In this document: one piece after another, positions 1,715 through 49,493 of the stretch
Layout: each line of letters opens with the position of its first letter
Position numbering within the stretch: position 1 is the first letter of the stretch
Position numbers and translations under genes: made by a program
Origin: a virus
Direction: 5' to 3' (one strand)
Length of the DNA stretch: 64,000 nucleotides
Virus record (IMG/VR): IMGVR_UViG_3300033233_000027
Coordinates: 13,685-77,684 of that record
Notes under the pieces: generated by a model
Database searches by the model: none
Told to the model about the DNA's origin: nothing
Seen by the model: the letters and a program-made list of their open reading frames with translations, nothing else

Positions 1715-1733
1715 TTGGTAAGAGGGGTTAACC

Positions 1734-7518: not shown

Positions 7519-7697
7519 AGACTGCGAAATGCGAGAAAACTGGCGACAGGGAATACTGGTCAAGTATAGCCGTAGGTGCGGCAGAAGTACGATCTCAGGC
7601 TTTTGCGAACTCCGTGAAATTTTCTTTGTGGCTGAACAAGTCGAGGGAGAGACGTAAGCCAACGAAGAAATAGCTTTGGCGAATCGGAGCGGGAGGG

Positions 7698-8399
7698 GTG
7701 GTGGATCAGCTCGTACTAATCATGGCTCAAGGCAAACAGGAAAGGCTTCCGATCTCCACCTACGGATACAAACAACTCCTCCGCATCGGAAACGAAAGCA
7801 TCATCGTAAGGCAGATTAGGCTTCTACGGGAAGCGGGCGCGTCGGACATTCGCATCGTGGCTGAGGAGACGCGCCCATGGCGTGAAGTGTCCAAATTGCT
7901 GTGCGTTCAGTTGTATCCGCTGCGCATACCAGGCGACTGCATTCTCAGCGGAGTGAGCGCGTGTCTGGATAGGCTGGCACCATCTGAACGTCGCCCAATT
8001 CTTTTCATGCTTGGCGATGTCATATTCTCTCGGGCTTTGATGCATTCCGTGTTGAGTGATCGCGGTGAGATCAGGATCTTTGCCAGAAAGGGCCCGAATC
8101 CCGCGACGGACAAATTGGATGGAGAAGCGTTTGCATTGCGTGTATCTGATGCGGCAAAGAAACCAGTGGCCGCATTGTCTCAGTCTCGCTCACACGCCTC
8201 TGGTTCCAACGGAAAACTATTTGATCTCGCAGCAGCACTGGTCATCTCCAGATTGTTCGGTGGAGAACCGATTCATCCGACGCAGCCAACAGACTGGAGC
8301 GATGACGTGGATTGCGTTGAAGACCTTGCGCGGCTTCCGGTTTTGGAGAAATTAGCAGTAGAAGATGACGCAGCATTCATCAATGCGCGAATCGCTTGA
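7698..8399 (+). CDS. NTP-transferase family (sugar-/choline-phosphate nucleotidyltransferase-like)
   Basis: LIMAQGKQERL...KQLLRIG, LGDVIFS, DDVD motifs. Confidence 0.75.
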   Translation: MVDQLVLIMAQGKQERLPISTYGYKQLLRIGNESIIVRQIRLLREAGASDIRIVAEETRPWREVSKLLCVQLYPLRIPGDCILSGVSACLDRLAPSERRPILFMLGDVIFSRALMHSVLSDRGEIRIFARKGPNPATDKLDGEAFALRVSDAAKKPVAALSQSRSHASGSNGKLFDLAAALVISRLFGGEPIHPTQPTDWSDDVDCVEDLARLPVLEKLAVEDDAAFINARIA

Positions 8400-8431
8400 T
8401 TCTCGCCTACTATTGTGTGTCCGTTTTTATA

Positions 8432-8461
8432 TTGACAATACCTCTCCATGGGCGTAGAAAT
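8432..8461 (+). promoter_or_regulatory. candidate promoter of the virion operon
   Basis: TTGACA(8432-8437)-17 nt-TAGAAA (imperfect -10), AT-rich upstream. Confidence 0.4.
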
Positions 8462-8551
8462 GACACATCGGAACCACTGGCTCCTCCCCGGGCCGACCGA
8501 TCTAGTCCGACCTGCGAGCCAGCCCTTGCGAGAGAGAAACGAGAGGGCTGG

Positions 8552-10654: not shown

Positions 10655-11352
10655 CCGAACACAAAAGGCTGCGGAGGCTTGGCATCGCGATTGATGCCGC
10701 CCCACCAGCCTATGGTGAAGTATTACGGACTCCTCTGGAGGACGACTTCGGGGGCATCCGGTTTGAAGTCGGTCGTGCTGTCCAATACGTAAAGGAAGGT
10801 GGCGCAGATCCGCTTGTGGTTGACACGGCGAGATATTGCGCGATGCTCGCGAGAGATACGGCAGAACAGCTTGGTTTTCCCGTAACTCCTGAGAACGCAA
10901 AGTTGATTGACCTGGAGGGGGTATTCCTTTGGGTCCAGGCCAACTTCGTTTACGTTGATGATCCAACTGGAGTGGAAGTGATGCAGACAGCACCTCGTAT
11001 GCTCCGTCAGAAGATGACGCCGCATGAAGTGCTGGAATGGATGTGGGCTCCGATTCGAGATGGAATGGCTCTTGCCCGCGGTATTGATCCATCGGAATTA
11101 AGCTGTCCTGAAGGAAAAGTGATCGGAGATTGCGAAGAGGCTGCCTGTCTTCTGTTGGCCATGGCTGCCGCTCTTGATATCGGTCCTCTGAAGTTCCGCT
11201 TCGGCGGGAATGATGGCCAACTCCACCATGTTTGGGCTTCTGCTATGGCTGGTGGAGAGTGGCGCGACATGGATGCTACTCAGCGCCAGTTAGGGTTCGA
11301 TCAGTTTCTGCCATTCGACCACTTCGATGAACTGGAGGTCGAACTTCCGTGA
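10651..11352 (+). CDS. transglutaminase-like cysteine protease (Cys-His-Asp triad)
   Basis: GDCEEAACLLLAMAAAL...HHVW...WRDMDAT; upstream YVDDP. Confidence 0.8.
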   Translation: MTEHKRLRRLGIAIDAAPPAYGEVLRTPLEDDFGGIRFEVGRAVQYVKEGGADPLVVDTARYCAMLARDTAEQLGFPVTPENAKLIDLEGVFLWVQANFVYVDDPTGVEVMQTAPRMLRQKMTPHEVLEWMWAPIRDGMALARGIDPSELSCPEGKVIGDCEEAACLLLAMAAALDIGPLKFRFGGNDGQLHHVWASAMAGGEWRDMDATQRQLGFDQFLPFDHFDELEVELP

Positions 11353-11969
11353 TCCTAGGAAAATGGTCTGATGGGCCACGCCTCGGCGCGGTTGAGCTGG
11401 TTGAGCTAGGCTCAATTCGTCGTCACGCCTCCATGGGTGGCTTCCTAGACTTCTTAGGTGGGTTCGCTGGAGAGGTTGCTGGATTCTTCGGGAGTGCTGT
11501 TGGCGCTGGGTTGGGATTCCTTAAGGATGCGCTGAATGTCGGGCTGAAGCCGCTGATGGATGGGGTTGCGTCTGCCTTCACTGGGCTGGCAGATATCCTT
11601 CGGGAGATCCCGCTCATCGGGGAAATCGTTGGTGGCCTCATCCTAGTTATCAACGCGGCCATTCAGACGCTGCTCTCTCTTCCGGGGCTCTTGATTGACG
11701 CGCTTCCGAAGATTCTTAAAGGACTGACCAGTTCGTTCTTTGGGGCGTACGGTAAGGATGAGCAGAGTTCAATCCTAAGCACGGTTCTGCCGAAAGTGGC
11801 CGCCAGAGCTCCAGAGCCGATTCGGAATGTCGTCAAGACCACGCTGGCTGAAACTAGGCCAGCGATTGACGGTTCGGTACAGCCACCCGAATCTGCGGGT
11901 GGAATTGATCCGCTTGTAATCGCCGGGGTCTCTGCCGCGGTTGTTGCCGCAGCTCTGATCGCGGCTTGA
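11349..11969 (+). CDS. putative virion membrane protein
   Basis: RLGAVELVELG leader, Gly-rich amphipathic/hydrophobic helices, C-terminal TM. Confidence 0.65.
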   Translation: MILGKWSDGPRLGAVELVELGSIRRHASMGGFLDFLGGFAGEVAGFFGSAVGAGLGFLKDALNVGLKPLMDGVASAFTGLADILREIPLIGEIVGGLILVINAAIQTLLSLPGLLIDALPKILKGLTSSFFGAYGKDEQSSILSTVLPKVAARAPEPIRNVVKTTLAETRPAIDGSVQPPESAGGIDPLVIAGVSAAVVAAALIAA

Positions 11970-12004
11970 CCTATCCAAGGCCTATTTTTTTTGGAGAAGA
12001 CACG

Positions 12005-12709
12005 ATGGCGGAGAAGAAGGGGGCGGGCACCAAGCCTGCCGGTTCCCGCCGCGGCGGGAACGTCGTGGTGGATCTCGGCGAGACGATTGACGACGTGATC
12101 GACGCCGCAGTCGAAGCTGGCTACAAACCAAAGCAGGGTTTGGGAGCGGCTGGTAACACGAAGCCAGGTGGGTATCGCCCTGGTTTCCTCGGTTCGAATT
12201 TCCGACCTGGTATCGGATTCCGTCCGAGCGGTATTCATCCATCCAAGCTGGGTATGGCCCTCAATATCCAGAGGACCGTGGACACGATGAAGGTTTTGGG
12301 TGGGTCCATTGCGGGCATGGCGTTCAACCGTGTTCTGTATCGAGCCATCCCGAAGGTGTCCACGTCCGTCACGTCGGAGCTGCTGGTCAATGGAGCGGCT
12401 GCCGTTCTTGGAGTCGCGCCCTACTTCCTTTTCAAGAAGGAAGGTCATGGAAGCGATTTCCTCGTCGGATTCGCGATCCCAGGCGTCGTGACATTCGCTG
12501 GATCGCTCTTCGACAAGCTCCTTGGCGCGGTCGCCTCCAGCGTCCTTCCGAAGCCGATGCTGTCTGGCCCGGATGCGTCCCGGCCAGCGACGGACGCGCA
12601 TCGTGCTTTGGCGGAAGCCAACCGTACGCTTGACGCGCTCAAGGGCCGGATGGGCCTACAGCGTCAGACGGTTGTGTCTCTGCCACGGGTTCAGGGGGTG
12701 GCTTCTTAA
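12005..12709 (+). CDS. putative virion membrane protein
   Basis: GGAGAAG RBS; RPG repeats, about three hydrophobic helices; upstream of the candidate capsid gene. Confidence 0.65.
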   Translation: MAEKKGAGTKPAGSRRGGNVVVDLGETIDDVIDAAVEAGYKPKQGLGAAGNTKPGGYRPGFLGSNFRPGIGFRPSGIHPSKLGMALNIQRTVDTMKVLGGSIAGMAFNRVLYRAIPKVSTSVTSELLVNGAAAVLGVAPYFLFKKEGHGSDFLVGFAIPGVVTFAGSLFDKLLGAVASSVLPKPMLSGPDASRPATDAHRALAEANRTLDALKGRMGLQRQTVVSLPRVQGVAS

Positions 12710-12713
12710 TAAA

Positions 12714-12810
12714 CATCCGCAGAGGGGGAAGGCGCCAACCCGTCCCCCGGGGAGGGGGCGCAGGGCGCCCCAAGGGTCGGACGCGGGTGGCGCCTACCCC
12801 GTGCGCGGTG
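12714..12810 (+). ncRNA. GC-rich long stem-loop in the 5' leader of the candidate capsid gene
   Basis: Nested pairs CCGC/GCGG, GGGG/CCCC, AGGCGCCA/TGGCGCCT, ACCCG/CGGGT, GGGGCGC/GCGCCCC. Confidence 0.5.
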
Positions 12811-12869
12811 AAGTGTGTTTGTGAACGAACTGTAACTGTGAATAACTGAAACGAACGAAAGGGAAGACA

Positions 12870-13628
12870 ATGGGCGAAACGATGCGCGATTACATTCCGC
12901 AACGTCCTCAACGTATCGGCATTTACGACAACAGCACCGGAAAGGTGACTGAGGCCGTCTATTCCGAGTGCGCTGACCAGACGCAGAGTGTTACTATCGC
13001 TTCTGGTACTGGCACGTACGATGTTACTCTCGAATTTCCCCAGACGCAAAACTCGGACTGCGATGCGACTCTTGGTCATGGAGTGGAGATCTCGTATCTC
13101 TCCGGTGGTGGTGCGACCGGCATGACGATTGGAGATCTCGCCAAAGTCCTTACTTCGGGCACGATTGAAATCACTCGTGCTGGCCAGAAGTGCGTCGATC
13201 AGCGCGAGATGGCTCAGGCGAATTTCCTTGTTCAGTTCCAGGCTGAAGCTGCGTTGGCTGCTGGCCGCGTGGCTGCTGGATGGAATAATGAGCAGATTTA
13301 TCGTGCTGGCCAGTGCACGCCTATCATGCTCTATACGAATAGGGATGTGATTCTGGTCAGGCTCCGTGGAGCTCAGCCAGATGAAACCCAGGTTGTTGTC
13401 GTGAAGCTCATCTTTACCCGCTACACGACGCAGCCAACGACTCCTTCCTGCGCACTCCTGCCGCTCGCTATCTTCCAGGGCTCTGCTTTCCCTGTGAAGT
13501 TCTACGAGAGTCTCCCAACCAGGGAAGCGCAGCCTTGGGATGTCGCTGATCTTTCTGGGGCTAACCAGGTGGCTACGCTTACGCATGGGGTTCAGCAGGG
13601 TCTTAGCGCGGAGCGTGGAATCGCGTAA
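12870..13628 (+). CDS. candidate major capsid protein (single jelly-roll-like)
   Basis: Beta-strand-rich, no TM; DLAKVLTSGTIEITRAGQK...PIMLYTNRDVILVRL...VVVKLIF pattern; strong RBS (GAAAGGGAAG); flanked by a structured leader and a terminator. Confidence 0.55.
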   Translation: MGETMRDYIPQRPQRIGIYDNSTGKVTEAVYSECADQTQSVTIASGTGTYDVTLEFPQTQNSDCDATLGHGVEISYLSGGGATGMTIGDLAKVLTSGTIEITRAGQKCVDQREMAQANFLVQFQAEAALAAGRVAAGWNNEQIYRAGQCTPIMLYTNRDVILVRLRGAQPDETQVVVVKLIFTRYTTQPTTPSCALLPLAIFQGSAFPVKFYESLPTREAQPWDVADLSGANQVATLTHGVQQGLSAERGIA

Positions 13629-13660
13629 CGTCTTCAGGGCGACCAGAAGGAACGTATTAC

Positions 13661-13694
13661 CCGGCGTGCGCCGATTGTCGGCGTACGCCGGTTT
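13661..13694 (+). terminator. intrinsic terminator / stabilising hairpin after the candidate capsid gene
   Basis: CCGGCGTGCGCCGA-TTG-TCGGCGTACGCCGG followed by TTT. Confidence 0.65.
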
Positions 13695-13720
13695 CCATCA
13701 CCTTCTGACGGTGTTGCTAG

Positions 13721-14329
13721 ATGACCGAACAACTAAATACAGATATTCCGTTCCTGCGACTAAAGGGGCAGCATGAAGTGCAAGGAGATTGCTTCATACG
13801 CCCATCGGACTTCTTTTTTGCAGAGAGATTCCAAAAGAAGGTAGAGGCACTAAAGAAATCGTCTCCACTCCTTGCTGAGGCGATCTGTTTTGCCCAGGCC
13901 TTGGGCCTGATGGAGCCTGCGGAAGCTCGTAGACCAGGGGCTGGCAATGCAGTAACCAGAACAAGGGTTGGAGTTACGGTTCCTCGAGCGACAGTAAATC
14001 CAGCTCAGCCTAATATAATCATACCTGGGGTATTTGAAGCGTTCTCTACCTGTCCACCAATGGGCACGTTAGGAATCGCCGGTAAGATTGATGTTATTCC
14101 GGCGAATACGACTGCGATCAGCTTCGGGCGTGTCTTCTATCAGCATATGATCGTTGGCGTAGGTAAAGATCTCTGTGTGGATTGGAATTTCCCAGACTGC
14201 CCAGGTTTTGTCACGACGGCAGAAAACTTCTTCATATCCCCTACGGGGATCAGGGTTTTCCTTCAGAATAGGTCTAGGACAGGAGAGGCGCTGTTCTCCG
14301 TTGAGGCAGAAATATGGCCAGTGCTGTGA
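13721..14329 (+). CDS. putative structural protein (beta-rich C-terminal half)
   Basis: 202 aa; alternating hydrophobic strands in the C-terminal half. Confidence 0.55.
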   Translation: MTEQLNTDIPFLRLKGQHEVQGDCFIRPSDFFFAERFQKKVEALKKSSPLLAEAICFAQALGLMEPAEARRPGAGNAVTRTRVGVTVPRATVNPAQPNIIIPGVFEAFSTCPPMGTLGIAGKIDVIPANTTAISFGRVFYQHMIVGVGKDLCVDWNFPDCPGFVTTAENFFISPTGIRVFLQNRSRTGEALFSVEAEIWPVL

Positions 14330-23561: not shown

Positions 23562-24310
23562 TCCAAAGAACCACCCTGCCGATCCGTCTGGCCAGACCGA
23601 AGATGGCGATGCCGGCTTTGCTTGGGTTCGTTCCCCCGAAATCACATCCACAGTTAGGTGCCGGACTCATCTCTGACCTACTTGGGGTGGATGTCCCAAA
23701 AATAGGAGTAGCGGCGATCTTGGCTGCTGGAGGCGTAGGAGCCTTGTTCGCTACTAAGATACTTCCTGAACCATTCAATACAGTAGCCGCTATCGGTGGC
23801 GTTGGCTTACTGGGTATTTCAATATACGAGTTGATCGATTCCTTTGGTGGTCCATCGGAAGCATCAAAAATACAAAGCGGTGAGACCGTGGATCTCACCA
23901 CGCATCCGAGGGTAACTCCGCAGGAGGTTCAGGATAAAAAGGTAGACGCTCGCTTCATTGAGCCACTTGAGAATGCGAATGTCTTGAAAAATCCGTTCAG
24001 ATCTGGCGCATACGTACCAACGAAGCTGATCGTAACAAATGATACAGGCAGATTGGTCACGGTTCGCCTTCTGTTCCAGGTAGTTGAGGGTGATGGATCT
24101 GTAAACTCCTATCACGAAGACAGGATGGCCGATCAAGGAACAAACACAAGAACATTTGATGCCCCGATAACTTCATACAGTGCTTTCTCGTGGCCACCCT
24201 GGCAACCAACAAGTGCGTGTGTCCAGGTTCGTGCAACGACGATAGAAAATGGGGTGGAGATTAAATATCCAGGTGGATGGGACGATCAGCGGTGCTTCAA
24301 TGTCATATAG
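23558..24310 (+). CDS. membrane protein with C-terminal beta-sandwich
   Basis: PIRLARP...PQLGA leader, two TM helices, Ig-like C-terminus. Confidence 0.65.
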   Translation: MIQRTTLPIRLARPKMAMPALLGFVPPKSHPQLGAGLISDLLGVDVPKIGVAAILAAGGVGALFATKILPEPFNTVAAIGGVGLLGISIYELIDSFGGPSEASKIQSGETVDLTTHPRVTPQEVQDKKVDARFIEPLENANVLKNPFRSGAYVPTKLIVTNDTGRLVTVRLLFQVVEGDGSVNSYHEDRMADQGTNTRTFDAPITSYSAFSWPPWQPTSACVQVRATTIENGVEIKYPGGWDDQRCFNVI

Positions 24311-24343
24311 ACCTAGAGCAGAGCCAATGTTTAGGGTAAACAG

Positions 24344-24616
24344 GTGAAGTTGAAGTTCGTGGATGTCCCTGAAGGCGGCTGCTTCGCATCAGGCAGCGGA
24401 CGGCCATCAAAGAAGTTGGTCGACGGTCGCTGTGCCTCCATCACCAAGAAGGGGAAGCAGCGCATCGTGCGATGCCCGAAGCAGGAGAGGGACGTGCAGA
24501 CAACGACGTGCCCGCTCTCTCTCCTTGGGGCTGGCCTGTCTGGTCCAAAGCGCGGCCTCGTGGAAATCGGACGCGCATTGCCGCATGAGCCTGAAAAGCG
24601 AAAAGGACGGCGATGA
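24344..24616 (+). CDS. small basic Cys-rich protein
   Basis: 90 aa, four Cys, K/R-rich. Confidence 0.55.
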   Translation: MKLKFVDVPEGGCFASGSGRPSKKLVDGRCASITKKGKQRIVRCPKQERDVQTTTCPLSLLGAGLSGPKRGLVEIGRALPHEPEKRKGRR

Positions 24617-25536
24617 GCGATTTCCTGAGAGATCCAGAAGGCCTGATCGATGCCTTGCGGGACTACTCGCCAGATGGCGTTCATGTCCTATCCCCGCTAG
24701 GTGGAGGAACGATCCGCCATCAGATCTATGGTAGGGAATTGGATATCAGCAAAACGCTTCCTGTCGCTTCGTTCCGAGTGGATCTGGACGATCCAATTCC
24801 GTTTGAAGAACACGCCGCAAAACTGAGGCTCTCTCCAGAAAAGATGACCGAGAAAGAACTACGAAAACTCTGGCGGGGCCATGAGCCTCCATTTCCAAGC
24901 GAAGTTCTGGAGCGCGGACTGAGCATGATGGACATCGAAGAGATGTCTTTCAGGAACATGGAATGTCTGGATGACGAAAGACGGATCGTCTGCTATGTCT
25001 TCGGCTGGAGAGACCTTGTCGTGGATCCTCTATTCCCTGGGGCCATGGTGGAATACGAAGAGGGCCGCAGTGGTGTTGCCTCCAAAGGAATATTGCCTGG
25101 AAGAGTCGCTGGAGGTGACAAGTCAATCGTCTTCCTGGAACTGTTCGAGCCGATGACTGCATCGGAAGCTAACCAACTCAATACCGCGCCATCAGCTATT
25201 CAATCTGGATTCTACAGTAAAAAAACTGTAGCGATCGGCGGAAATACATGGGATGCATGGACGGTTTCAGATCCAGATTCCCTCCCAAAGGGAGATAGAG
25301 TTGAGATCGGTGGAGGAGAATACGAGGTCAGGCTGGACGAGCCTCTTGATCTATCCAAGATTGCTGAATTCTGCTCCAAGCACTACCCAGATGAGCCTGC
25401 CTGTGTCTGGCAGTCGCTCCTCTTCTTCGTACTTCCGCTCAACGCCAACAAAGGGGGAAGATTCCATCCGCTTCGTGCTGGTCAGGAAGGTACGTACATG
25501 GATGCGCTGGAATGGGAGATCGGGCACGGATTATGA
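24613..25536 (+). CDS. hypothetical acidic protein
   Basis: 307-aa ORF, ATGA-coupled. Confidence 0.65.
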   Translation: MSDFLRDPEGLIDALRDYSPDGVHVLSPLGGGTIRHQIYGRELDISKTLPVASFRVDLDDPIPFEEHAAKLRLSPEKMTEKELRKLWRGHEPPFPSEVLERGLSMMDIEEMSFRNMECLDDERRIVCYVFGWRDLVVDPLFPGAMVEYEEGRSGVASKGILPGRVAGGDKSIVFLELFEPMTASEANQLNTAPSAIQSGFYSKKTVAIGGNTWDAWTVSDPDSLPKGDRVEIGGGEYEVRLDEPLDLSKIAEFCSKHYPDEPACVWQSLLFFVLPLNANKGGRFHPLRAGQEGTYMDALEWEIGHGL

Positions 25537-25594
25537 GAGAGGAATTCTTTGAGCGAGCGGGGGTGCGTGGTATCATCCCCGCTGGGAGAGACGC

Positions 25595-25966
25595 ATGAAG
25601 GTATCGGCTAGGCTTGGCACAGGTGGATGCCCCTCTGGGAAGATTCGCAGGAAGGCCTACACGACGCGTAAGGGCGTTCATGTCAAGTCATCATGCGTTC
25701 CTGACAAGGGAACGAAAGGAAAGGGTCCAAAAACTCTTCCAACACCGAGGCCTGGCTCGCTCGAGGGCTGGAAGAAGGATCTCCCATCAACGGAGCGCCA
25801 CGCCATCCTGCACGATATCACCAAGCGCGAAGGGTGCGGCGTAGCCATAAAAAAGCTGACGCTTCTCCAGAACATCACGGCTGATGCGGCAACGAAGCGC
25901 ACAGCCAAGACAGACAAGAAGTGGCTGAGAGGCCAGGGATTCTGCGAGCTTGCGAGGGGAAAATGA
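25595..25966 (+). CDS. small basic protein (possible nucleoid/core protein)
   Basis: ARLGT then CPSGKIRRKAYTTRKG...SCVPDKG...RHAIL...KKL...DKKWLR. Confidence 0.6.
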   Translation: MKVSARLGTGGCPSGKIRRKAYTTRKGVHVKSSCVPDKGTKGKGPKTLPTPRPGSLEGWKKDLPSTERHAILHDITKREGCGVAIKKLTLLQNITADAATKRTAKTDKKWLRGQGFCELARGK

Positions 25967-26220
25967 AAACGAAGCTCGGGGCCATAGAACTGGTGGAACT
26001 CGGTCGCGCCTCAAAGCGCGTCTGCGCTAGGGCAGTCAAGAGCGGTAAGCGGTGGGTCGTGCGCACCTCAGATGCGGGTTCCGGTGCCGGCAGGAACTGG
26101 ATTGAGGCTCCGTGCCTTCGCAGCAAGAAGAAGTCGAAGGCGCGTACGTTCCTGACTCGCTCCATCGCAGAAGCCCATGCGCGAAAGTGCGGAATCATGC
26201 TGTGCCGAAAAGGAAAATGA
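25963..26220 (+). CDS. small basic protein
   Basis: MKTKLGAIELVELGR; ATGA-coupled. Confidence 0.6.
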   Translation: MKTKLGAIELVELGRASKRVCARAVKSGKRWVVRTSDAGSGAGRNWIEAPCLRSKKKSKARTFLTRSIAEAHARKCGIMLCRKGK

Positions 26221-26262
26221 GTCGGTAATATACTTTTGACTAGGACGAAAGGGGGGATAGGA

Positions 26263-27042
26263 ATGCAAGCGAGACCACTGGGGTATTATGGGCGTATCAA
26301 GCCTTCACCAATCAGGATCCCGCAAGGTGCCCGCTCAGCGGCACTTGGAGCTGCGATCATTCTGGATCAGCAACTTGCCGCAAGCGTAATCCAGCGATGG
26401 AATGGGGCGAATCAGGGAAAGAACGAAGCCCTAGCTGTACTCACTAACTTCCCGTACGATACAGCTCCAGTAGGTTCATATTCGCAACTGGATGGGGCCG
26501 TTACCAACTTTGAGACGCTCAACGGATCGGCTGGAATCGTAAGCCTTGTAGGAAAAGCTACCCTAGTTCTTCAAAACAACGCACCCTCCTTCACGTCACA
26601 GGAAGAACTACAGGCTCTTAATGCGCTGGAGAACATGGGGCATCTGCTACAGAAAGCAGCTCAGGCGCTGATGAGTATTCCTCCTCCGACCCCAGCCCAA
26701 CCGCCACAAGGCATTCTCCTGTCGGCCGCAGAGGCTAATGGATACAACGCTGCCGTGCAGTCGCTTCTCGAGGCTATCGGACTGCTTGGAACCCCAGCCA
26801 TCTTGGTGCCGCATAAGGCTGCATTGCAGGCGCTTTCTGGCAACTTGCAGACATCCCCAGTCTATGTGCCACCCAACTTTGCCTCCACAATCCAGGCGGC
26901 TTCTGATGCGGTTACGACTGAGAGGAATAGACAGGCTGCGTTGGCCCAAACAGGACAGACTCCAGTTGCTGGAGATCAGACCGCGCTCTACGTTGGCGGT
27001 GGCGTTGCGCTTACTGCCTTGCTCCTTATTGCGTTTGCCTAA
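26263..27042 (+). CDS. tail-anchored putative virion protein
   Basis: PIRIP...AALGA leader; domain shared with 27070; C-terminal TM. Confidence 0.7.
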   Translation: MQARPLGYYGRIKPSPIRIPQGARSAALGAAIILDQQLAASVIQRWNGANQGKNEALAVLTNFPYDTAPVGSYSQLDGAVTNFETLNGSAGIVSLVGKATLVLQNNAPSFTSQEELQALNALENMGHLLQKAAQALMSIPPPTPAQPPQGILLSAAEANGYNAAVQSLLEAIGLLGTPAILVPHKAALQALSGNLQTSPVYVPPNFASTIQAASDAVTTERNRQAALAQTGQTPVAGDQTALYVGGGVALTALLLIAFA

Positions 27043-27069
27043 ACCTATGATGCGGGCTATGCCCGCAAT

Positions 27070-27744
27070 ATGAATTGGAGAATAGCGATGAATCAGCCGA
27101 TCAGACTCGCACGACAATTTTCTCCCATCGGAAAGTCGATCCGCCTTGCTGGTGCCCGTCTTGGGAATCCAGATACATTCCTGTCGGATTCTCAGGCATC
27201 TGCGGTCAGGCAGGGCGCACAGACGCTTCTGCAAGCGATCGGGGCGTTGGGAAATCCAGCTAGTCTTTCTTCCTGGAAAAACTGGCTTGAGACCTTCTCG
27301 TACAGGCTTCAGCAGCCACCAGTTTATGTGGCAGATGACTACACCTCCACTCTCCAGGGGGCGTCCGATGCAATTGCGGCAGAGAACGCTAAGCAGGGTG
27401 GCCAGGTCCCGACGATGTTCCTCTACGCCGAAGAGGCGGCTCCATGGTCTGAGGCAGCTAAAGCGATTCTAGCTGAGATGGGAAATATCGGTAATCCAGC
27501 ATCCTTGGCCCAGCATAGGAGTAATCTGGAATCCCTAGTCTCGCAGTTCTCAGATGTCAAGCAGGATACCACGGGTCGAAATTATGTCGTGGTTCGATCT
27601 GATTATGGCCAGAGGATTGAAAACGCCAGAGCTGCTACGCAGCAGGCAAAGGCTTCTCCAACCGCCTCAACTGGTCCATCTACGGTCGAAGTGGCTGGTG
27701 TAATTGGAGTGATCGGCCTCGGCCTCTGGCTCGCGTTGGGTTAA
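27070..27744 (+). CDS. tail-anchored putative virion protein with internal duplication
   Basis: PIRLARQ...ARLGN leader; two GNPASL repeats; C-terminal TM. Confidence 0.7.
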   Translation: MNWRIAMNQPIRLARQFSPIGKSIRLAGARLGNPDTFLSDSQASAVRQGAQTLLQAIGALGNPASLSSWKNWLETFSYRLQQPPVYVADDYTSTLQGASDAIAAENAKQGGQVPTMFLYAEEAAPWSEAAKAILAEMGNIGNPASLAQHRSNLESLVSQFSDVKQDTTGRNYVVVRSDYGQRIENARAATQQAKASPTASTGPSTVEVAGVIGVIGLGLWLALG

Positions 27745-27796
27745 AAACTGCGGCACACCAATGGTAGGCAGCGTCTGAATAGCGAGGAGAGTAAAG

Positions 27797-28234
27797 TTGC
27801 CTGATACGGCCCCGCATCCAGCAAGATATCTGGATGCTACTAAGGAGGAGGCCCAGGCCTTCACTACTGCCGCCAAGCATGTGCTGGACTATGTGGCGCA
27901 GCATCTGGACAGTTCCCACGTCGCCTGCGACCCAGGAATTGCCGTATGGGCCAATAGGCTCTCTGCCGCTGTGGCACGCCTAGACCAGGATAAATCTGGC
28001 TTCTACAAGATCCCGTCAGAGGCTATTGAGGCCATTGCCAGAATATCAGAATGCGCCACAGCCATCTCCAGACACGTCGATCTGGTACGTCTGATTGCCT
28101 TCGTGGGCAGTTCTGCCGGCACATTCGGGCTTTTGGCCCTGAAACTGCCCATTCTGGCCTGGGTTGGCTACGGGGCCGCAGTGGCAGCCACGGTAATCGG
28201 CCCTTCCGTACGCATACCGCTCCTAGAGGATTGA
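27797..28234 (+). CDS. membrane protein
   Basis: GAGGAG RBS; two C-terminal hydrophobic helices. Confidence 0.6.
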   Translation: MPDTAPHPARYLDATKEEAQAFTTAAKHVLDYVAQHLDSSHVACDPGIAVWANRLSAAVARLDQDKSGFYKIPSEAIEAIARISECATAISRHVDLVRLIAFVGSSAGTFGLLALKLPILAWVGYGAAVAATVIGPSVRIPLLED

Positions 28235-28237
28235 GCC

Positions 28238-28702
28238 GTGATGTCGAAGAAGCGGATCCTCTACATCGTGCTCCCTGATCCGACCTTGGCGGGAGAAAGA
28301 CACCTCTGGGGCTGGACCATCCTGACTGGGAGAGGTGGCCCAGATGTCCATGTGGTCGACGGAAATGAGATGGCTAAGATCGTTGGGGGAGGGGTTGTGG
28401 TTCCAGCGGTCGGCTGGAAGAGAAAGGCTCGAGTGTCTTTCCAGGAAGAACTGACCATACCAGTCGGACCTGAACGTGCCTGGAATGAACTGGCCAAAAC
28501 ACTCAACCCTCAACCCAGCGAAGGTTCCGTCTCGGCAAAATACTCTGGTCCTTGGACTGGTGGTCGCTGGAGGATCGCTGGTCCATTCTGTTGTCCAGCA
28601 GATGCGTCTGGATTTGCGGCCGACGATGCGGGCCATACAGGGGCCAGCATCGCCGTGGAGCTCTGGACGATGACTTCAGGGAAGTGGAAGAGAACGGGTT
28701 GA
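28238..28702 (+). CDS. hypothetical protein (last gene of the + block)
   Basis: 154 aa, Trp-rich. Confidence 0.55.
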   Translation: MMSKKRILYIVLPDPTLAGERHLWGWTILTGRGGPDVHVVDGNEMAKIVGGGVVVPAVGWKRKARVSFQEELTIPVGPERAWNELAKTLNPQPSEGSVSAKYSGPWTGGRWRIAGPFCCPADASGFAADDAGHTGASIAVELWTMTSGKWKRTG

Positions 28703-28729
28703 GCCGCAGCTGGAATTGCCAGCTGCGGC
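28703..28729. terminator. hairpin at the convergence of the two transcription blocks
   Basis: Perfect 11-bp stem GCCGCAGCTGG-AATTG-CCAGCTGCGGC. Confidence 0.65.
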
Positions 28730-28749
28730 CACAATCTGAAGCGCAGCGG

Positions 28750-29028
28750 CTAGATCACGACCCCAGCCACGATTTCAGGAAAGACCACAAGATGATCTCC
28801 ATCGGCCACCCCAGCCTGCGGCAAAGTCTGCGTTTCAAGCAGACGTCGCCCCTTTTCCTTGTGGTCTAGGCTGTAGACCATCGGGGAGCCATCTGGAGAA
28901 ACGGCTGGGAGCAACATCTTCGTGATGATGTTCGGGAGGATCTTGGACACGGGGACGGAATCCGAGATCCTCGCTTTGACGCTCTTAGCACCCGTCTGAT
29001 CCAGAAAAATAACCATTCGGTCTGCCAT
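28750..29028 (-). CDS. ubiquitin-like beta-grasp protein (EsaB/YukD-like)
   Basis: ...ISDSVPVSKILPNIITKM.LP...YSLDHK..GRRL...QTL.QAGVADGDHL..FPEIVAG-VVI; AAGGAGG RBS. Confidence 0.75.
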   Translation of the reverse strand: MADRMVIFLDQTGAKSVKARISDSVPVSKILPNIITKMLLPAVSPDGSPMVYSLDHKEKGRRLLETQTLPQAGVADGDHLVVFPEIVAGVVI

Positions 29029-29076
29029 GGCATCCTCCTTCTGTTGCACAGAATGCGTACTGTGCGTACAACCGAA

Positions 29077-29532
29077 CTAAACCCTTCCTAATTGCTGCAA
29101 GAAATCGAACGCCTCTTTTGTAAAACATTCCCAGAACAGCTTGGCTGCGGCTGGAACCTCATTCGGATCGTGAACTTCGACACGGGCCGTAGGAAGGTGA
29201 ATCGCCACCTTGGCTACGTCCCATGTTTTACCTCCGACGCAGAACCACCCATCTATAGTTACTCGAGCCAGTTCAACTCCGCGGAGTGCGTAAATTAGTT
29301 TTGCGCCATCTCCCCGATATCTGAACCAGCCTTCGGGAATCATGTCCCCGTACTGGATTTCCGTAACCGACATCTGCCCGTCCCTTCTAATCAGCGTGCG
29401 GTATTTATCTATCGCCTCAGCAGTGGCGGCAGCAGCCCCGATCTTCTCTTCACGGTGCCCGCCATCGCCATGGATAACGGCTAGTACGCATCCTAGGAGT
29501 TCCCGGTACTCGTTCATCGATTCACGTCTCAT
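29077..29532 (-). CDS. hypothetical protein
   Basis: LAVIHGDGGH motif; 151 aa. Confidence 0.55.
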   Translation of the reverse strand: MRRESMNEYRELLGCVLAVIHGDGGHREEKIGAAAATAEAIDKYRTLIRRDGQMSVTEIQYGDMIPEGWFRYRGDGAKLIYALRGVELARVTIDGWFCVGGKTWDVAKVAIHLPTARVEVHDPNEVPAAAKLFWECFTKEAFDFLQQLGRV

Positions 29533-29809
29533 ATTTCATAGCCACGCTTGGCTTGTTCAATCCGCTCCCTTGGCACCAAGGACACTTTCCATCAACGGCT
29601 CGGAATACGGTTTCATCCTTCGTACTCTCCCAGGAGAAATTGCAGTCTGGTCCGTGGCAGTGACGTATCAGCTTAACCGAATCCCCTTCCAGAACTGATC
29701 CGAAGTTCGGGGATCCGCAGGTCGGACACTTGAACGCGTGATGCTTGCCAGTTCCAAAGCAGGCAGGACATTCTTTCGGAACTTTCGGTTTGCTCTTTGC
29801 GTCTGTCAC
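29522..29809 (-). CDS. Zn-finger protein (DnaJ-type CxxCxGxG)
   Basis: CPACFGTG, CPTCG, CPWCQGSG. Confidence 0.55.
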   Translation of the reverse strand: MTDAKSKPKVPKECPACFGTGKHHAFKCPTCGSPNFGSVLEGDSVKLIRHCHGPDCNFSWESTKDETVFRAVDGKCPWCQGSGLNKPSVAMKYET

Positions 29810-30028
29810 GAATAACCCTTTCCTGAATCACCCCCACTTTGTACCAAAATACCCAACTACGGTGGCCTCGTTTCGCACACTTACCCATGGGTACGTGGGC
29901 AATCTATGGCTTTGTTTTACATCGAACATCGACCGGCCGTACCTGTGTCCAGAATCCGTATATGGCCATCAGGAAAAAGGCTGAAGAAAGTATCGTGATG
30001 AATACCCAGTAGGCAGACATGGCTCACC

Positions 30029-30385
30029 TTACGTTTTCGGACGTGTCTTTATCTTCTCGCGCATTCTATCTGCGTCTTCTTGCACATCAGCGTTGAAGCT
30101 GGACCAATCAGATAGGTGCCCAAAAATAATATGGCAATCGTGCGAATTCTCATCACAGAGAGAGATGAGGTTCGTTTGATCGAGTTCCAGCGCAGGATTC
30201 AAATGAAACGGCTTCTTATGGTGGACCTGGACATCCTTCGTAACGCCGCAGACAGCACACATCGGGTTCTTCTCGAGATGCTTCTTGCGAACTGTCGGCC
30301 ATTGTGGACTTCTTTTCAAGCCAGCAGCCTTGATCGGTTTGTCCTGTGGGCGACCTAGGATGGCATTCCGAATTGCGTTTAGCAT
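30029..30385 (-). CDS. small HNH endonuclease
   Basis: CAVCG...VHHKKP...NLISLC...CH. Confidence 0.8.
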   Translation of the reverse strand: MLNAIRNAILGRPQDKPIKAAGLKRSPQWPTVRKKHLEKNPMCAVCGVTKDVQVHHKKPFHLNPALELDQTNLISLCDENSHDCHIIFGHLSDWSSFNADVQEDADRMREKIKTRPKT

Positions 30386-30581
30386 TGCGTCTCTTTCTTA
30401 TTGGAGGAACTCGCTCTCAGTTCATCAACCAAGATCTCAAGTTCAATGAACTCGTCCTCATACTGAGGCAGGATCGGAGTCTCAAGGCCCCCCATCTTTC
30501 CTAGCAACGCTTCTGCTGCCTTGAGAAGCCGGTTCAGGTTATCATTGCCCATCTGGCTTCACCATTTATCTCTTTTACGCA

Positions 30582-30653
30582 CTGCCCCGTCACGATTCGA
30601 ACGTGAACCTTCCGCATCCAAAGTGCGGCGAGCTACCGTTACTCCACGGGGCA
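30582..30653 (-). tRNA. tRNA-Gln (UUG)
   Basis: Cloverleaf with TGCCCCG/CGGGGCA acceptor, CCGCA-CTTTGGA-TGCGG anticodon arm, TTCGAAT T-loop; no encoded CCA. Confidence 0.9.
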
Positions 30654-30655
30654 TA

Positions 30656-30812
30656 GAGGACGGCAGGGGATCATCCCTGTCCCCCTGCCGTCTCTGGAAA
30701 GATCGGGGACACACCAACCCTAGGTATGTCCGGTTGAAAGAGCGATCCGCAGTGCGCACAAGTGGCGCTGCGGTAGCCGAACCGTGGAGCTCGCGCCCCA
30801 CGAGGACGGCTA
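30656..30812 (-). ncRNA. four-hairpin structured segment directly 5' of tRNA-Gln
   Basis: Stems TAGCCG/CGGCTA, CCGCAG/CTGCGG, GGACATACC/GGTGTGTCC, GACGGCAGGGG/CCCCTGCCGTC. Confidence 0.4.
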
Positions 30813-30825
30813 AGATTTCGTATAT

Positions 30826-31002
30826 CTACTTTTTCACGACTGGCCTGCATCTACGATGCCGGCGAGCGAACCCATTCAGGAGATCGTTGAACTGGTGTAC
30901 TAGGAGAGGAAGACCGACTGGCTCCTGGGATCCACACCGCTCGCATAGCATCGACGGAGGTTGCTGGTCGTATTTCAGGACGGCCCACCAAATGCTGTTC
31001 AT
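30826..31002 (-). CDS. 58-aa Zn-binding-like protein (not in ORF track)
   Basis: MNSIWWAVLKY...CERCG...RHRRC. Confidence 0.5.
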   Translation of the reverse strand: MNSIWWAVLKYDQQPPSMLCERCGSQEPVGLPLLVHQFNDLLNGFARRHRRCRPVVKK

Positions 31003-31014
31003 CGTTCTATCGTT

Positions 31015-31677
31015 TCACGCCATCAGCGGTAGTTCGTACTCGTCATAATTCTCGAAGGGATGATGTTCCCCGAATTTTGGATGGAGAATGTCGCAATCCA
31101 CGAACCGTCGTTGGCAGCCAATCGAAGCCCAGACGTAGTGCAGGCTTCCTCCAGTTCCTCCAAGCCTCATCTTGAGCGGGCTTAGGCCAATGGCCGCAGC
31201 AAGCGTCAGTACGAGAATTGTCGCATCGTCTGAGTCGCCGGACATCTTCGGACTCGGACACTGGAGCGGTCCAAGATCATTCAATTTGCTTTGAGCAAAT
31301 GCCGCTTGGATCGGATTCCAGAAGATATCCAGCACTTCCTTTGGCGTACGAAGTCGGCGCAGATTGTTTGCAGCAGTACGAATACATTCCGAGCCGATAG
31401 GATCCTGTACGTACACAAATCTGTCATGGCACCACGCGTACAGTCCCTGAAGCTGAACGAGATCGCGATTGTCTTCTGAGAGTACCACACCATTTTTACT
31501 AGCTGCCTCTGCTGAGAATGTGGCAATGAGATGCGCTGTATCTATTACCAGCGGATCGGTGTGGCCTTCACAGATGAAGTCTGCCATCCGACCAAGAGTG
31601 AATTGGACCGCATCAAACTCTGGCAATCTCCTAATTCTTGATTCACCTAGCCCTGGGATGTTGTCCTTACTCTTCAT
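31015..31677 (-). CDS. transglutaminase-like paralogue with substituted catalytic residues
   Basis: Colinear with 10651..11352 (DPLVIDTA, YVQDP) but has GDSDD and HYVW in place of GDCEE and HHVW; AAGGAG RBS. Confidence 0.75.
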   Translation of the reverse strand: MKSKDNIPGLGESRIRRLPEFDAVQFTLGRMADFICEGHTDPLVIDTAHLIATFSAEAASKNGVVLSEDNRDLVQLQGLYAWCHDRFVYVQDPIGSECIRTAANNLRRLRTPKEVLDIFWNPIQAAFAQSKLNDLGPLQCPSPKMSGDSDDATILVLTLAAAIGLSPLKMRLGGTGGSLHYVWASIGCQRRFVDCDILHPKFGEHHPFENYDEYELPLMA

Positions 31678-31706
31678 GCCTTGGCTCCTTCTAGGATTCC
31701 AGAATC

Positions 31707-31952
31707 CTATCGTTCTACGACCCCTGCTCCACAACACGTTGGGCAAGTCTTCTGCTTCGTACCACGAATCTCTCTGGCGAATACCACCGGGCTTCCCCAG
31801 TCAGCTTTTGTGAGGATGGCAACGGCCTCTTGAAATGTCTTTGCGGCAAGAACGGCTCGCATATCCTTAAAGCAGGAAGGCCAGTCATCGCATGGACTCG
31901 GTTCAATGTTCAGATACATCCGCTGTAGCTGTTTATCGGTATAGGTCTTCAT
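31707..31952 (-). CDS. hypothetical protein
   Basis: GAGGA RBS; C-terminal CPTCCG. Confidence 0.5.
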   Translation of the reverse strand: MKTYTDKQLQRMYLNIEPSPCDDWPSCFKDMRAVLAAKTFQEAVAILTKADWGSPVVFAREIRGTKQKTCPTCCGAGVVER

Positions 31953-31964
31953 GATTCCTCAATA

Positions 31965-32246
31965 TCACGCAGGCTCGTACGTCATCTCGAAAATGTCAGG
32001 CTTGCACGGGTACTTCTCGCCCTTGACCCCGGTGATGATCCAGTCGCCAACCCTGACCTCCATCACACCTTCCAAGGTGTCGATGAAGAATCCGTAGATT
32101 GGGCCGTACTTCCGGTTCAGGTCAATCTGGTACGCATCGCCCCCGCCCCACTTCTTCTCTCCACGGCGCATCCCATCGGGCAGTGGCCCATCTGGATTCG
32201 TGAACTGCACGGCCTCAATCACTACTGGTTTCTTGCGGAATCTCAT
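31965..32246 (-). CDS. conserved phage protein of the KKPVVIEA...TLEG...GDWII...YPCKPDIF family
   Basis: Family motif clearly present; GGAGG RBS. Confidence 0.8.
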   Translation of the reverse strand: MRFRKKPVVIEAVQFTNPDGPLPDGMRRGEKKWGGGDAYQIDLNRKYGPIYGFFIDTLEGVMEVRVGDWIITGVKGEKYPCKPDIFEMTYEPA

Positions 32247-32719
32247 TTCGCCTCCCCTCCAGTTACGCGCCCTTTATTGGAAAGCATTCCGCGATCTCAC
32301 GAACAAGTTTGAATCCAGCGCAGAGTCCATACCAAATGACGCCAGCGATGTAACCGAAAAGTAAACCAACTACGTAGAATGGCAACCAGATAAATGCAGT
32401 GGCGCATCCAGCCGCCCGACCACTCCTACGTAGTTCTTCTTTCGCATCCATGCTTCACCCTCCAGTATCACGACTTCGGCGCACTCTTTCGCGCCTGCTG
32501 AAATTCCGAACACGAGCCGCACTGGCAGCGTCGTCCATGGTTCAGGTACTTTCTGACTATCTTTCCGCACTCATAGCAGTGAATGCGTCGGAGTCCAACG
32601 AAGACCCTTCCAACCGAGGCCGCGCAGCACAAACAGTAGCCCGACCTCGCCTTTGCTACATTTGTGTGCCTTATGCTGTGCGAGCCCATGCGCGTTCCTC
32701 CGGGATTGTGTAGGGAGAA

Positions 32720-33127
32720 TTACATTCCTTGGTCTATCTGTTGGCGCAGGATTTCTACCAGCCGATGGATAATCTCTGAGAATTCTTCTGTGTAAGACGG
32801 GTCCCACCGCGCATCTTCCAATTCTATATGCTTAACCTTCCTTGCGGTCTTCCACCTCTTCAGAAGCTGCCTTGCCGTCGAGGCTCCATCGGCGTCCAGA
32901 TAACATTCATCGATTCTGACGACGGTGTGCATGTATCCGTTTTCGCTTACAAGAAAGACTGGCGTGACTTCACCCAGCCATGCCTTGAGAGATTTAGCCA
33001 GGATTTGACAACCACCAGTCGTCCAATCCTTGGCACCAAAATCATAAAGGATTTGATATGCCTCATCTGACTTTATCACCTCTCGTATCCTCCGACCAAG
33101 TTCTTTAAGAACAGGCGAGCAAGCCAT
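32720..33127 (-). CDS. hypothetical protein (possible papain-like fold)
   Basis: GGCQILA...HTVV...YLDADG Cys-His-Asp-like pattern. Confidence 0.5.
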   Translation of the reverse strand: MACSPVLKELGRRIREVIKSDEAYQILYDFGAKDWTTGGCQILAKSLKAWLGEVTPVFLVSENGYMHTVVRIDECYLDADGASTARQLLKRWKTARKVKHIELEDARWDPSYTEEFSEIIHRLVEILRQQIDQGM

Positions 33128-33145
33128 ATAATCCTTCCTCCGGAA

Positions 33146-33541
33146 TTACGAATTAGGTTCGATCTCCATCGCCTTCGCGACCCGCGCCAGACACGACCCG
33201 CAAGTCTTGCAATCTTCCGGATTCGGACGATCGGTGTACCACCTACTCGGCCCTCGGTATTTCGCCGGCGCGTCTTCCCCTTCCCAAGTAACGCACGGCA
33301 TCCCTGCGGCCTCGTCGACAACATCCCGCCTCGCTTCAGCAAGCTTTGCGGCCGGATGAATCTCAAGCGCCATCACGCGTTCAGCTTGGCGCACGGCGTT
33401 TCCCCATGAATCGTCTCGCACATCCGATCCCTCTATCAATACAGCTACCGTAGCCTGGAGTGCCTGCATGAGAGCGTTGCACCGAAGAGCGATTAGCTCC
33501 AAGTCTTGGCTGAGAATGGCGATGCGTTCTTCTGGAGTCAT
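33146..33541 (-). CDS. hypothetical protein
   Basis: 131-aa ORF in the block direction. Confidence 0.55.
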   Translation of the reverse strand: MTPEERIAILSQDLELIALRCNALMQALQATVAVLIEGSDVRDDSWGNAVRQAERVMALEIHPAAKLAEARRDVVDEAAGMPCVTWEGEDAPAKYRGPSRWYTDRPNPEDCKTCGSCLARVAKAMEIEPNS

Positions 33542-33568
33542 GCTTCACTAGATTCGCGCTTATGGGTC

Positions 33569-33901
33569 CTATTCGACCCTAAGAAACACAGGCACCGTCT
33601 TATAGCCAAGATTGCTTGCCGCAAAAGCTCTATGATGTCCCTCCATCCACACGTTGTCTTCATCTAGGGTATCCATCAGCATTGGCCTCAGGGTTCCTCC
33701 AGCTTCCAGCCCCATCATTACGTTGCGCACGCGACTATCAGATATCATGACGCATGAATCCCAAGCGACCTGAACCGCTTCCTCAGTTGGGAATTTGCGC
33801 TCAAATTTCCATGCTGTTTTCACAGCAGATCCGCCAAGGTGGCCCACGATCTCATGCTGATGTTCTGTGGGTAGCTCCGAAAATTTGTAGTATTTCTTCA
33901 C
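33569..33901 (-). CDS. ParB/Srx-like small protein
   Basis: PMLM...MEGHHRAFAASNLG...VPV motif. Confidence 0.6.
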   Translation of the reverse strand: MKKYYKFSELPTEHQHEIVGHLGGSAVKTAWKFERKFPTEEAVQVAWDSCVMISDSRVRNVMMGLEAGGTLRPMLMDTLDEDNVWMEGHHRAFAASNLGYKTVPVFLRVE

Positions 33902-34185
33902 TGGGTTTCTCCAGTCATCATTCAGTCGAATTACGCCCTCGGTACGAACAATGGCCCGGCGAGCAGGCGATACATCCGTCGTACACTTCCGCACACATCG
34001 CAGATCCTTCCCTCAAACTCATTGCCGTGAGCCTGGTCAAGGAAATACTCCGGGGCTCTATAGGACGACTTGTCCTTGCTCTCCGCAAGTCGATCACGGG
34101 CGTTCGCATAGACGATGCCGCAGTCAGCGCAGGCGCATGGGATGTCGGTGTAGCCCATCAGTCATCTCCTCACTTTCGCTCTGAA

Positions 34186-43386: not shown

Positions 43387-43405
43387 CTATCCTCCATTCA
43401 CGTAG

Positions 43406-43476
43406 TAGGCCGTAGAGGAGTCGAACCTCTATCAAGCCCTTATAAAGAGCCCGCTCTACCGTTGAGCTAACAGCCT
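43406..43476 (-). tRNA. tRNA-Ile (UAU)
   Basis: AGGCTGT/ACGGCCT acceptor, GCTC/GAGC D-stem, GGCTC-TTTATAA-GGGCT anticodon arm, TTCGACT T-loop. Confidence 0.85.
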
Positions 43477-48620: not shown

Positions 48621-49493
48621 CTAGATGAAGTCGTGGGTAAGGACAGCCGTAAGGTTGGAATCAACCAGGGACGAACTTTCAAGGAACATACTCACCAGAT
48701 CAGTGTCAACAACTGGAACGATATCAGCAAACGAAAATACCCCCGTGGTTGCGGCTGGAATTGCCAGGCTAGCTTGAGTAACGCCATTAACCCTAACACG
48801 AATTGTCCCAGAGACTGTCGCCGTGTTTATTGCTACGAAGGCACGGAAGTTTTTCAGGTTTCCAGCCCGATTGGTAGGCCATTGGAACTTGGATTCAACC
48901 AGATCTCCGCTGGCGCCGGTTACTCCAGTGACCGTAGTTAAGTAGCTGTTTGTCGTGGTCACAGGGAATGGAGGCTTCGTGCCGATATTGACCGTGGTGG
49001 CCCCGCTATAGATGACAGGACCGTCGCCACCGCCTGTAGTTCCAGGTCCCTGTACGCCCTGAATTCCCTGCGCTCCTTGGGATCCCTGTGTGCCTTGGGC
49101 ACCTTGGCTTCCTTGGGCTCCTTGTGGACCAAGATCACCCTGGGCACCTTGCGGGCCAAGATCCCCCTGAGCGCCCTGAGATCCTTCTGGCCCTTGCGTT
49201 CCCTGTGGCCCAAGATCGCCTTGTGCGCCTTGCGGACCAAGATCTCCCTGATTGCCTTGTGATCCTTCGGGTCCTTGTATCCCCTGCGGTCCAAAATCGC
49301 CTTGTGCGCCTTGCGGACCAAGATCTCCCTGATTGCCTTGTGATCCTTCGGGTCCTTGTACTCCTTGTGGACCTCCAGACGGGCCTTGGTTGCCTTGATT
49401 GCCTGAAATACCTGGAGTACCTTGCGCACCGCGGCCACCACCGCCGATCCTGAAGCCGCCACCGCCTACAGGAATTGGAAAACCAGGGCCCAT
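48621..49493 (-). CDS. collagen-like fibre protein A
   Basis: About 40 G-X-Y (mostly G-X-Q) triplets plus C-terminal beta head. Confidence 0.9.

Follow-up and report, generated by a model that had tools for sequence, protein, structure and literature searches.

A ubiquitin-like protein encoded by a sediment virus and its kinship with the tags of planctomycete conjugation operons

Ubiquitin genes are well known in eukaryotic viruses. What might a bacterial virus do with such a gene, encoded alone, in a genome with no conjugation enzymes of its own? The question is raised by a 92-codon gene for a ubiquitin-like protein (Ubl) in a viral record assembled from a sediment metagenome (IMG/VR IMGVR_UViG_3300033233_000027). 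Eukaryote-like ubiquitin operons, encoding ubiquitin (Ub), E1, E2, a small RING E3 and an Rpn11/JAB protein, were predicted in Actinobacteria, Planctomycetes and Acidobacteria by Burroughs, Iyer and Aravind in 2011 (cited in PMC4197634). The ubiquitin system of Caldiarchaeum subterraneum has been reconstituted (PMC5654768, PMC6043591), and the related Rpn11 homologue of archaea has been shown to process the Ub precursor (PMC6043591). Our literature search found no experimental work on the bacterial operons. In this report, we describe the viral gene and its surroundings, its cellular relatives, the ways in which it departs from them, and what it might do during infection.

The genome is a single contig of 77,684 bp with a 120-bp direct terminal repeat, and is rated by IMG/VR as a complete virus. 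The stretch analysed here, ‘the window’, comprises 64,000 nucleotides (bases 13685-77684 of the genome); positions refer to the window unless stated otherwise, and those of the main features are collected in Table 1. Pfam and PHROGs scans recognize genes for DnaB, a C5 methylase, a tyrosine integrase and an HNH endonuclease. The viral status of the contig rests on the IMG/VR record with its terminal repeat, on these four genes, and on three tRNA genes. Capsid, portal, terminase and tail models found no match among the large proteins scanned with Pfam and PHROGs (window 7698-28702, plus strand, and genome bases 1-13800), and PHROGs matched neither the Ubl nor its neighbours, the HNH endonuclease excepted. 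A 752-aa protein of the virion operon has no relative in IMG/VR, INPHARED or 401 sampled Planctomycetota genomes, and hence these sources offered no related virus or prophage with which to compare this one. A Logan contig, from the probable source run, spans 24000-34000 with zero differences, so the position of the Ubl gene is not an artefact of a single assembly; identical short contigs are present in a second sediment study.

Table 1. Positions of the Ubl gene, its signals and other features of the genome
Feature	Position	Strand	Remarks
Viral Ubl CDS, 92 aa + TAG	28750..29028	-	ORF and translation, Pfam YukD, AlphaFold2, homologue identity
Ubl beta-grasp core	residues 3-85		
Ubl tail	residues I86-V87-A88-G89		
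Ubl three-residue cap	residues V90-V91-I92		
Ribosome-binding site AAGGAGG	29034..29040	-	5 nt upstream of ATG (29028); read from sequence
Alternative in-frame start, GTG	29049	-	
GC-rich 12-bp hairpin, no U-tract	28702..28730	.	between two convergent operons
Plus-strand gene ending at the hairpin	28238-28702	+	
CxxCxGxG zinc-finger-motif proteins	29522-29809, 31707-31952	-	small; DnaJ-type motifs; Ubl operon
Transglutaminase-like protein	10651-11352	+	motifs GDCEE, LHHVW
Paralogue of the transglutaminase-like protein	31015-31746	-	motifs GDSDD, LHYVW
tRNA-Gln (TTG)	30582-30653	-	
tRNA-Ile (TAT)	43405-43476	-	
tRNA-Pro (TGG)	53393-53466	-	
Three collagen-triple-helix repeat proteins	48621-49493, 49598-50458, 63096-63998	-	
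Multi-glycosyltransferase, 1386 aa	56536-60696	-	four GT2 stretches and a methyltransferase domain
GT2-TPR protein	genome bases 12449-13453		outside the window

The Ubl gene is the final gene of a leftward accessory operon. A first-pass annotation, made from the letters of the window, described its product as a 92-residue beta-grasp protein of the YukD type with a strong ribosome-binding site, ending in PEIVAG plus three residues. Each part of this description is borne out. The protein matches the Pfam YukD model (PF08817) with an E-value of 1.2e-13 (52 bits; cut-off 27); the ribosome-binding site, AAGGAGG, precedes the ATG by 5 nt; and the C-terminus reads P-E-I-V-A-G-V-V-I-stop in the translated frame. 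An alternative in-frame start lies upstream of the ATG, and the public gene call is of 92 aa too. Beyond the gene—20 nt past its stop, and directly after the stop of the plus-strand gene that converges upon it—is a hairpin. The 71-nt stretch that contains it folds, as RNA, with -29.1 kcal/mol (z -2.84), a stability equalled by none of 200 shuffles. It is absent from the list of a consensus terminator scan, and is probably a shared transcript end or stabiliser. Elsewhere in the operon are the small proteins with DnaJ-type zinc-finger motifs; for the upstream 151-aa gene, an ESM Atlas search gave no usable lead. The operon also includes, 2 kb upstream of the Ubl, a paralogue (37% identity; E 1e-51) of a plus-strand protein with a weak Pfam match to the transglutaminase core; to judge from the motifs of the two proteins, the catalytic Cys of the paralogue has likely been replaced by Ser.

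AlphaFold2, from a 21-row alignment, predicts, with confidence, a beta-grasp with elements in the order beta-beta-alpha-beta-beta-beta (pLDDT 89.1; pTM 0.77). The predicted strands span residues 3-9, 16-22, 51-56, 61-63 and 79-85, and the helix residues 27-38; residues 86-92 form a floppy tail. Among PDB structures, Foldseek places Caldiarchaeum ubiquitin first (6FNO/6FJ7; TM 0.70-0.79, 26% identity), SUMO and ubiquitin next, and the Ubl domains of EccD, from ESX systems, lower. Among predicted viral structures (BFVD), the best matches are the ubiquitins of BVDV, giant viruses and baculoviruses. When PDB sequences were searched with a profile, Caldiarchaeum Ub was the sole, weak match (E 0.3). 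The Pfam ThiS and MoaD models do not match the viral protein.

By sequence, its relatives are close and nearly all planctomycete. A word-indexed search returned 393 proteins at E <= 1e-3, the best of them 70-81% identical to the viral Ubl, and every homologue with a named source is from a planctomycete (Lignipirellula, Paludisphaera and Planctomycetota MAGs). An exhaustive HMMER search returned 495 cluster representatives, some of them fused or in tandem. A further 301 loci came from a pattern scan limited to one genome per species; of the 80 listed, nearly all belong by record title to Planctomycetota. Metagenome loci reach <=77% identity at best. Neither IMG/VR nor INPHARED contains a relative in any other virus. 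The homologues that were aligned all have PE[IV]VAG at the C-terminus, followed in some by a short tail, and share a conserved core, FLDQTGAKSV...LPNIITKM...PDG.PM.Y.LDHKE.G.RL...GDHL.V.PE[IV]VAG, to which the viral Ubl conforms.

In bacteria, the Ubl genes keep constant company. The gene order in Singulisphaera acidiphila, as assigned by Pfam, is Prok-RING_1, Ubl, UQ_con E2, ThiF E1, JAB, M48 peptidase, MMPL. In a BLAST census of loci with readable flank, about 70 from genomes and 32 from metagenomes, the cellular Ubl adjoins an E2, plus an E1 and/or a JAB, wherever there is sufficient flank, with one exception, a locus with E1, JAB and M48 within 10 kb. The viral protein clusters with Ubls encoded beside E2, E1 and JAB. 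It does not group with the YukD proteins of T7SS or with sulfur carriers, either of which the first-pass annotation had named as counting against its own proposal. Three layouts occur: A, RING-Ubl-E2-E1-JAB(-M48-MMPL); B, E1-Ubl-E2-short JAB; and C, Ubl-E2-JAB-E1-JAB-E2-RING. Layout B, which by record title is carried by uncultured Planctomycetales/Planctomycetota, was confirmed with Pfam at one locus (ThiF, UQ_con, JAB); in its E2, HPN precedes the catalytic Cys, and its JAB shows the motif HxHx7Sx2D. These planctomycete loci are the operons that were predicted in 2011. In layout-A loci of the Isosphaeraceae type, a membrane peptidase of the M48 (CAAX-type) family and an MMPL transporter regularly follow the other five genes, a synteny that may point to a link between the pathway and the membrane.

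The system belongs to the core of at least one family but is patchy through the phylum, since 106 of the 121 genomes from the family of Singulisphaera have the Ubl gene, mostly in single copy, whereas in an even sample of the phylum 27 of 301 genomes match at E <= 1e-10 and about 10 have a member of the tight family. About a quarter of the Singulisphaera-family genomes have, elsewhere, a second and far more distant Ubl paralogue (E about 1e-20). Further forms came to light in the HMMER search (P0121, P0140, P0142, P0156, P0164, P0178 and P0180): tandem di-Ubls in which each unit ends in AG, as in polyubiquitin; N-terminal Ubls joined to long C-terminal domains; and Ubl-E2, Ubl-TIR and CHAT-Ubl-Ubl-HINT fusions. 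In a 683-aa relative with an embedded Ubl, Phe occupies the position of Y83, as it does in the viral protein.

Residues beyond the terminal Gly are common among the cellular proteins. Of 156 cellular Ubls, 51 stop at the Gly and the others extend one to three or more residues beyond it; the tails mostly begin with R or S, and the hydrophobic VVI of the virus is unusual, but not unique. Since about two thirds of the cellular Ubls bear short tails, a capped Gly is normal for the family and, on its own, no sign of a decoy. The enzymes, in contrast to the tag, are not encoded by the virus. The first-pass annotation had recognized no E1, E2 or JAB in the window, and this extends to the genome as a whole: the Pfam models for ThiF/E1, UQ_con/E2, Prok-JAB and Prok-RING_1 find no match at E <= 1 in the complete 77,684 bp.

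How does the viral copy differ from the cellular ones? Measured against 149 distinct cellular sequences, it retains 52 of the 56 columns that are >=95% conserved, A88-G89 included. The four departures at such columns are S51V, G59K, I81V and Y83F; others are T7I, N39L and Q48S. Several of these residues are very rare elsewhere: among the 156 cellular locus Ubls, F83 occurs in none, V51 in two, V81 in one and I7 in one. In strands 1, 3 and 5, the positions of departure alternate with invariant hydrophobic residues, and HMMER aligns the final strand to that of Caldiarchaeum Ub. By strand register and this alignment, rather than by coordinates, T7, S51, I81 and Y83 are predicted to lie on the side of the sheet that is exposed. 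By the same register, the equivalents of I81 and Y83 in ubiquitin would be H68 and V70. The sister sequence, P0002, which is 80% identical to the viral Ubl and sits on a contig of 509 bp, has five of the viral departures.

The capture is an old one. In a FastTree phylogeny, the viral Ubl falls inside the layout-B clade with moderate support (0.68-0.76); its terminal branch, at 0.18, is 12 times as long as the median of 0.015. Layout B also gives the highest nucleotide identity. GC content and tetranucleotide similarity do not discriminate between host groups. Synonymous sites are saturated with respect to all hosts (pS 0.64-0.83), with dN near 0.2 and omega no higher than 0.07-0.15. Saturation at this level, together with an omega of at most about 0.15, shows an old capture, and to purifying selection accompanied by few, directed changes. 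The GC3 of the gene, 0.66, is intermediate between 0.53 +/- 0.03 for the virus and 0.82 for host genes.

Taken as a whole, we give roughly an even chance to the following reading: the virus has long carried this copy of the Ubl gene of a Planctomycetota conjugation operon, and the product uses the JAB, E1 and E2 of the host and competes with the host's own tag. Among the operon layouts, the copy is most like B, E1-Ubl-E2-JAB. During infection, the viral Ubl would be made as a precursor and cut after Gly89 by the JAMM peptidase of the host. Once trimmed, it would be adenylated and thioesterified by the host E1, handed to the UQ_con-type E2, and attached to lysines, in competition with the host tag. 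Because its predicted exposed face differs from the consensus of the cellular planctomycete Ubls, the viral tag would be handled differently. T7I, S51V, I81V and Y83F could cause it to be read, extended or removed in other ways, shifting the output of the pathway in the virus's favour. Contact with the host E1, E2 and JAB is strongly suggested, given about 75% identity and the retention of every family-invariant residue. In this respect the general idea of the first-pass annotation, that the virus engages the E1, E2 or deubiquitinase of its host, fares well; its choice of Bil as the target system does not, and no PADLOC or NCBIfam model, BilA included, matches the viral Ubl. Several observations weigh against the competing-tag reading. 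The substitutions on the exposed face are equally compatible with a binder that is not productively transferred; the Ubl of the true host might bear the same substitutions, as P0002 bears five; the VVI tail is atypical beside host tails that start with R or S; support in the tree is moderate; and virion hallmark genes were not recognized among the large proteins scanned.

A non-productive binder would be a different kind of weapon, a viral ‘ubiquitin variant’ that binds a host E1, E2, JAB or reader tightly, without productive transfer or removal, and so jams a pathway that would otherwise restrict the virus. This is the proposal of the first-pass annotation, moved from Bil to the planctomycete system. 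We consider it possible, if on the doubtful side. Three of the four changes at the >=95% positions fall, with T7I, on the exposed face by register, a clustering with a p of about 0.008 by a rough, post hoc hypergeometric estimate. The absence of F83 from all of the cellular locus Ubls, and the recurrence of the same changes in P0002 despite 20% divergence, which suggests selection, fit this picture as well. Engineered ubiquitin variants, mutated on the equivalent face, are potent inhibitors of deubiquitinases and E3s, and designs of the ubiquitin-variant type appear among the PDB fold matches. More distant relatives are fused to the conflict-type domains TIR, CHAT and HINT, and RING-type Ubl systems have been predicted to act in conflict (PMC7159879, PMC10557695). 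What tells against a decoy is that the host system is near-universal within one family, in single copy (106/121), and syntenic with M48 and MMPL genes, unlike typical defence islands; that PADLOC, with its defence-system models, finds no match to the Ubl; and that the tail and terminal Gly, for which a pure binder has no need, are fully retained. The more specific proposal, that the planctomycete Ubl-E1-E2-JAB(-RING) pathway is infection-responsive or antiviral, and that the virus counters it with a remodelled face (I7, V51, V81, F83) that traps or misdirects the host enzymes, we think unlikely, at perhaps one chance in four.

Conjugation might, alternatively, play no part. The Ubl could help virion or membrane proteins to assemble, as a chaperone or adaptor, in the manner proposed for YukD in T7SS and for the Ubl domain of lambda tail assembly protein I. 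In a variant of this idea, the viral transglutaminase-like Cys protease could process or ligate the Ubl, with no need of E1 or E2. Ubl domains with a C-terminal Gly and a part in assembly have been described in phages (PMC1779556), and the genome has both the transglutaminase-like enzyme, weak as its Pfam match is, and the Cys-to-Ser paralogue near the Ubl. Yet the Ubl gene lies in the leftward accessory operon, outside the plus-strand morphogenesis block; the protein is about 75% identical to a conjugation-pathway Ubl, with the invariants kept, which speaks for the same partners; and T7SS genes are found neither in the virus nor beside the cellular homologues. We judge a conjugation-free role improbable. 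Least probable, and in our opinion very improbable, is that the gene is a passenger without function, or that the contig is not viral at all, being a host fragment or some other mobile element. The lack of a recognized capsid, portal or terminase, and of Ubl relatives in the other viruses of IMG/VR and INPHARED, would be consistent with this. Against it stand an intact frame with a strong ribosome-binding site, synonymous sites at saturation and an omega no higher than about 0.15, the terminal repeat and the rating as complete, the HNH, integrase, DnaB, methylase and tRNA genes, and the identical fragments from the second sediment study.

We found no description, in our literature search, of a bacterial virus with a captured copy of its host's conjugatable tag. 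The nearest published precedent is the occurrence of E1-like genes in viruses of Asgard archaea (bioRxiv 10.1101/2021.07.29.454249). The host tag is conserved as strongly as a housekeeping protein, in a pathway predicted in 2011, and the retention of a reshaped copy under purifying selection suggests that this pathway matters in infection. As a natural variant that differs at four positions of this face and has a capped tail, the viral protein could serve to probe the specificity of E1, E2, JAB and readers in vitro. Should it prove to be a decoy with a remodelled face, it would be the first anti-defence protein to act by mimicry of a bacterial ubiquitin-like tag.

How, finally, does the viral Ubl compare with known systems? 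Sulfur-carrier Ubls have an E1 partner only, occur in cofactor biosynthesis operons, and end in GG. We reject a sulfur carrier of the ThiS/MoaD kind here: the partners of the family are a UQ_con E2 and a JAMM peptidase, and there is no ThiS or MoaD match. Tail assembly protein I of phages lambda and T1 is ThiS/MoaD-like; its gene belongs to the tail operon, next to that of a JAB-NlpC protein, and its Ubl is joined to a further, C-terminal domain (PMC1779556). The viral Ubl is likewise a beta-grasp whose C-terminal Gly is conserved, but it has no PHROG match and lies outside the morphogenesis block. With the YukD/EsaB proteins of T7SS, the founders of PF08817 (PMC1779556), it shares the Pfam model and, through EccD, some of its lower fold matches. 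T7SS YukD sits with EssC and ESAT-6 genes and is not known to be conjugated, whereas the viral-Ubl family has an invariant terminal AG and constant E1/E2/JAB neighbours. Membership of T7SS is rejected, the cellular neighbours being RING, E2, E1, JAB, M48 and MMPL, and the scanned viral proteins having no T7SS match.

The BilABCD systems are bacterial, ISG15-like and anti-phage (bioRxiv 10.1101/2023.09.04.556158; PMC10557695). BilA resembles the viral Ubl in being a beta-grasp with a C-terminal Gly and with E1, E2 and JAB partners, and the layout-B operon has the same four kinds of component. In finer detail the likeness fades. The BilD model matches the host E1 with only 25 bits, a generic similarity of the sort that this E1 also has to ThiF and Cap2; the host E2, RING and JAB have no match to the Bil models of PADLOC; and the Ubl, E2 and RING go unrecognized by both PADLOC and NCBIfam. 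Many planctomycete operons add a RING E3, and it is the bacterium, rather than a virus, that encodes the Ubl in Bil systems. With no PADLOC match, and no bilABCD operon in the virus, we reject Bil membership for the viral Ubl. To the Ubls of the prokaryotic ubiquitin operons, in contrast, it is kin: it belongs to the same protein family (70-81% identity), with the same C-terminal Gly and removable tail. It differs in having left the operon, being encoded alone, without E1, E2, JAB or RING, and in its four putative exposed-face substitutions, which are near-absent from the cellular copies.

In this solitary state it resembles the ubiquitins of eukaryotic viruses (e.g. baculovirus v-ubi, the ubiquitins of giant viruses and the insertions in BVDV), which are likewise diverged copies of a host tag without conjugation enzymes. 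Baculovirus v-ubi is about three quarters identical to host ubiquitin, and competition between tags, if it occurs here, would follow the logic proposed for v-ubi. The host in the present case is a bacterium, and the tag is a beta-grasp of the YukD model rather than ubiquitin proper. With these differences, the viral Ubl looks like the counterpart, in a bacterial virus, of the ubiquitin genes of eukaryotic viruses.
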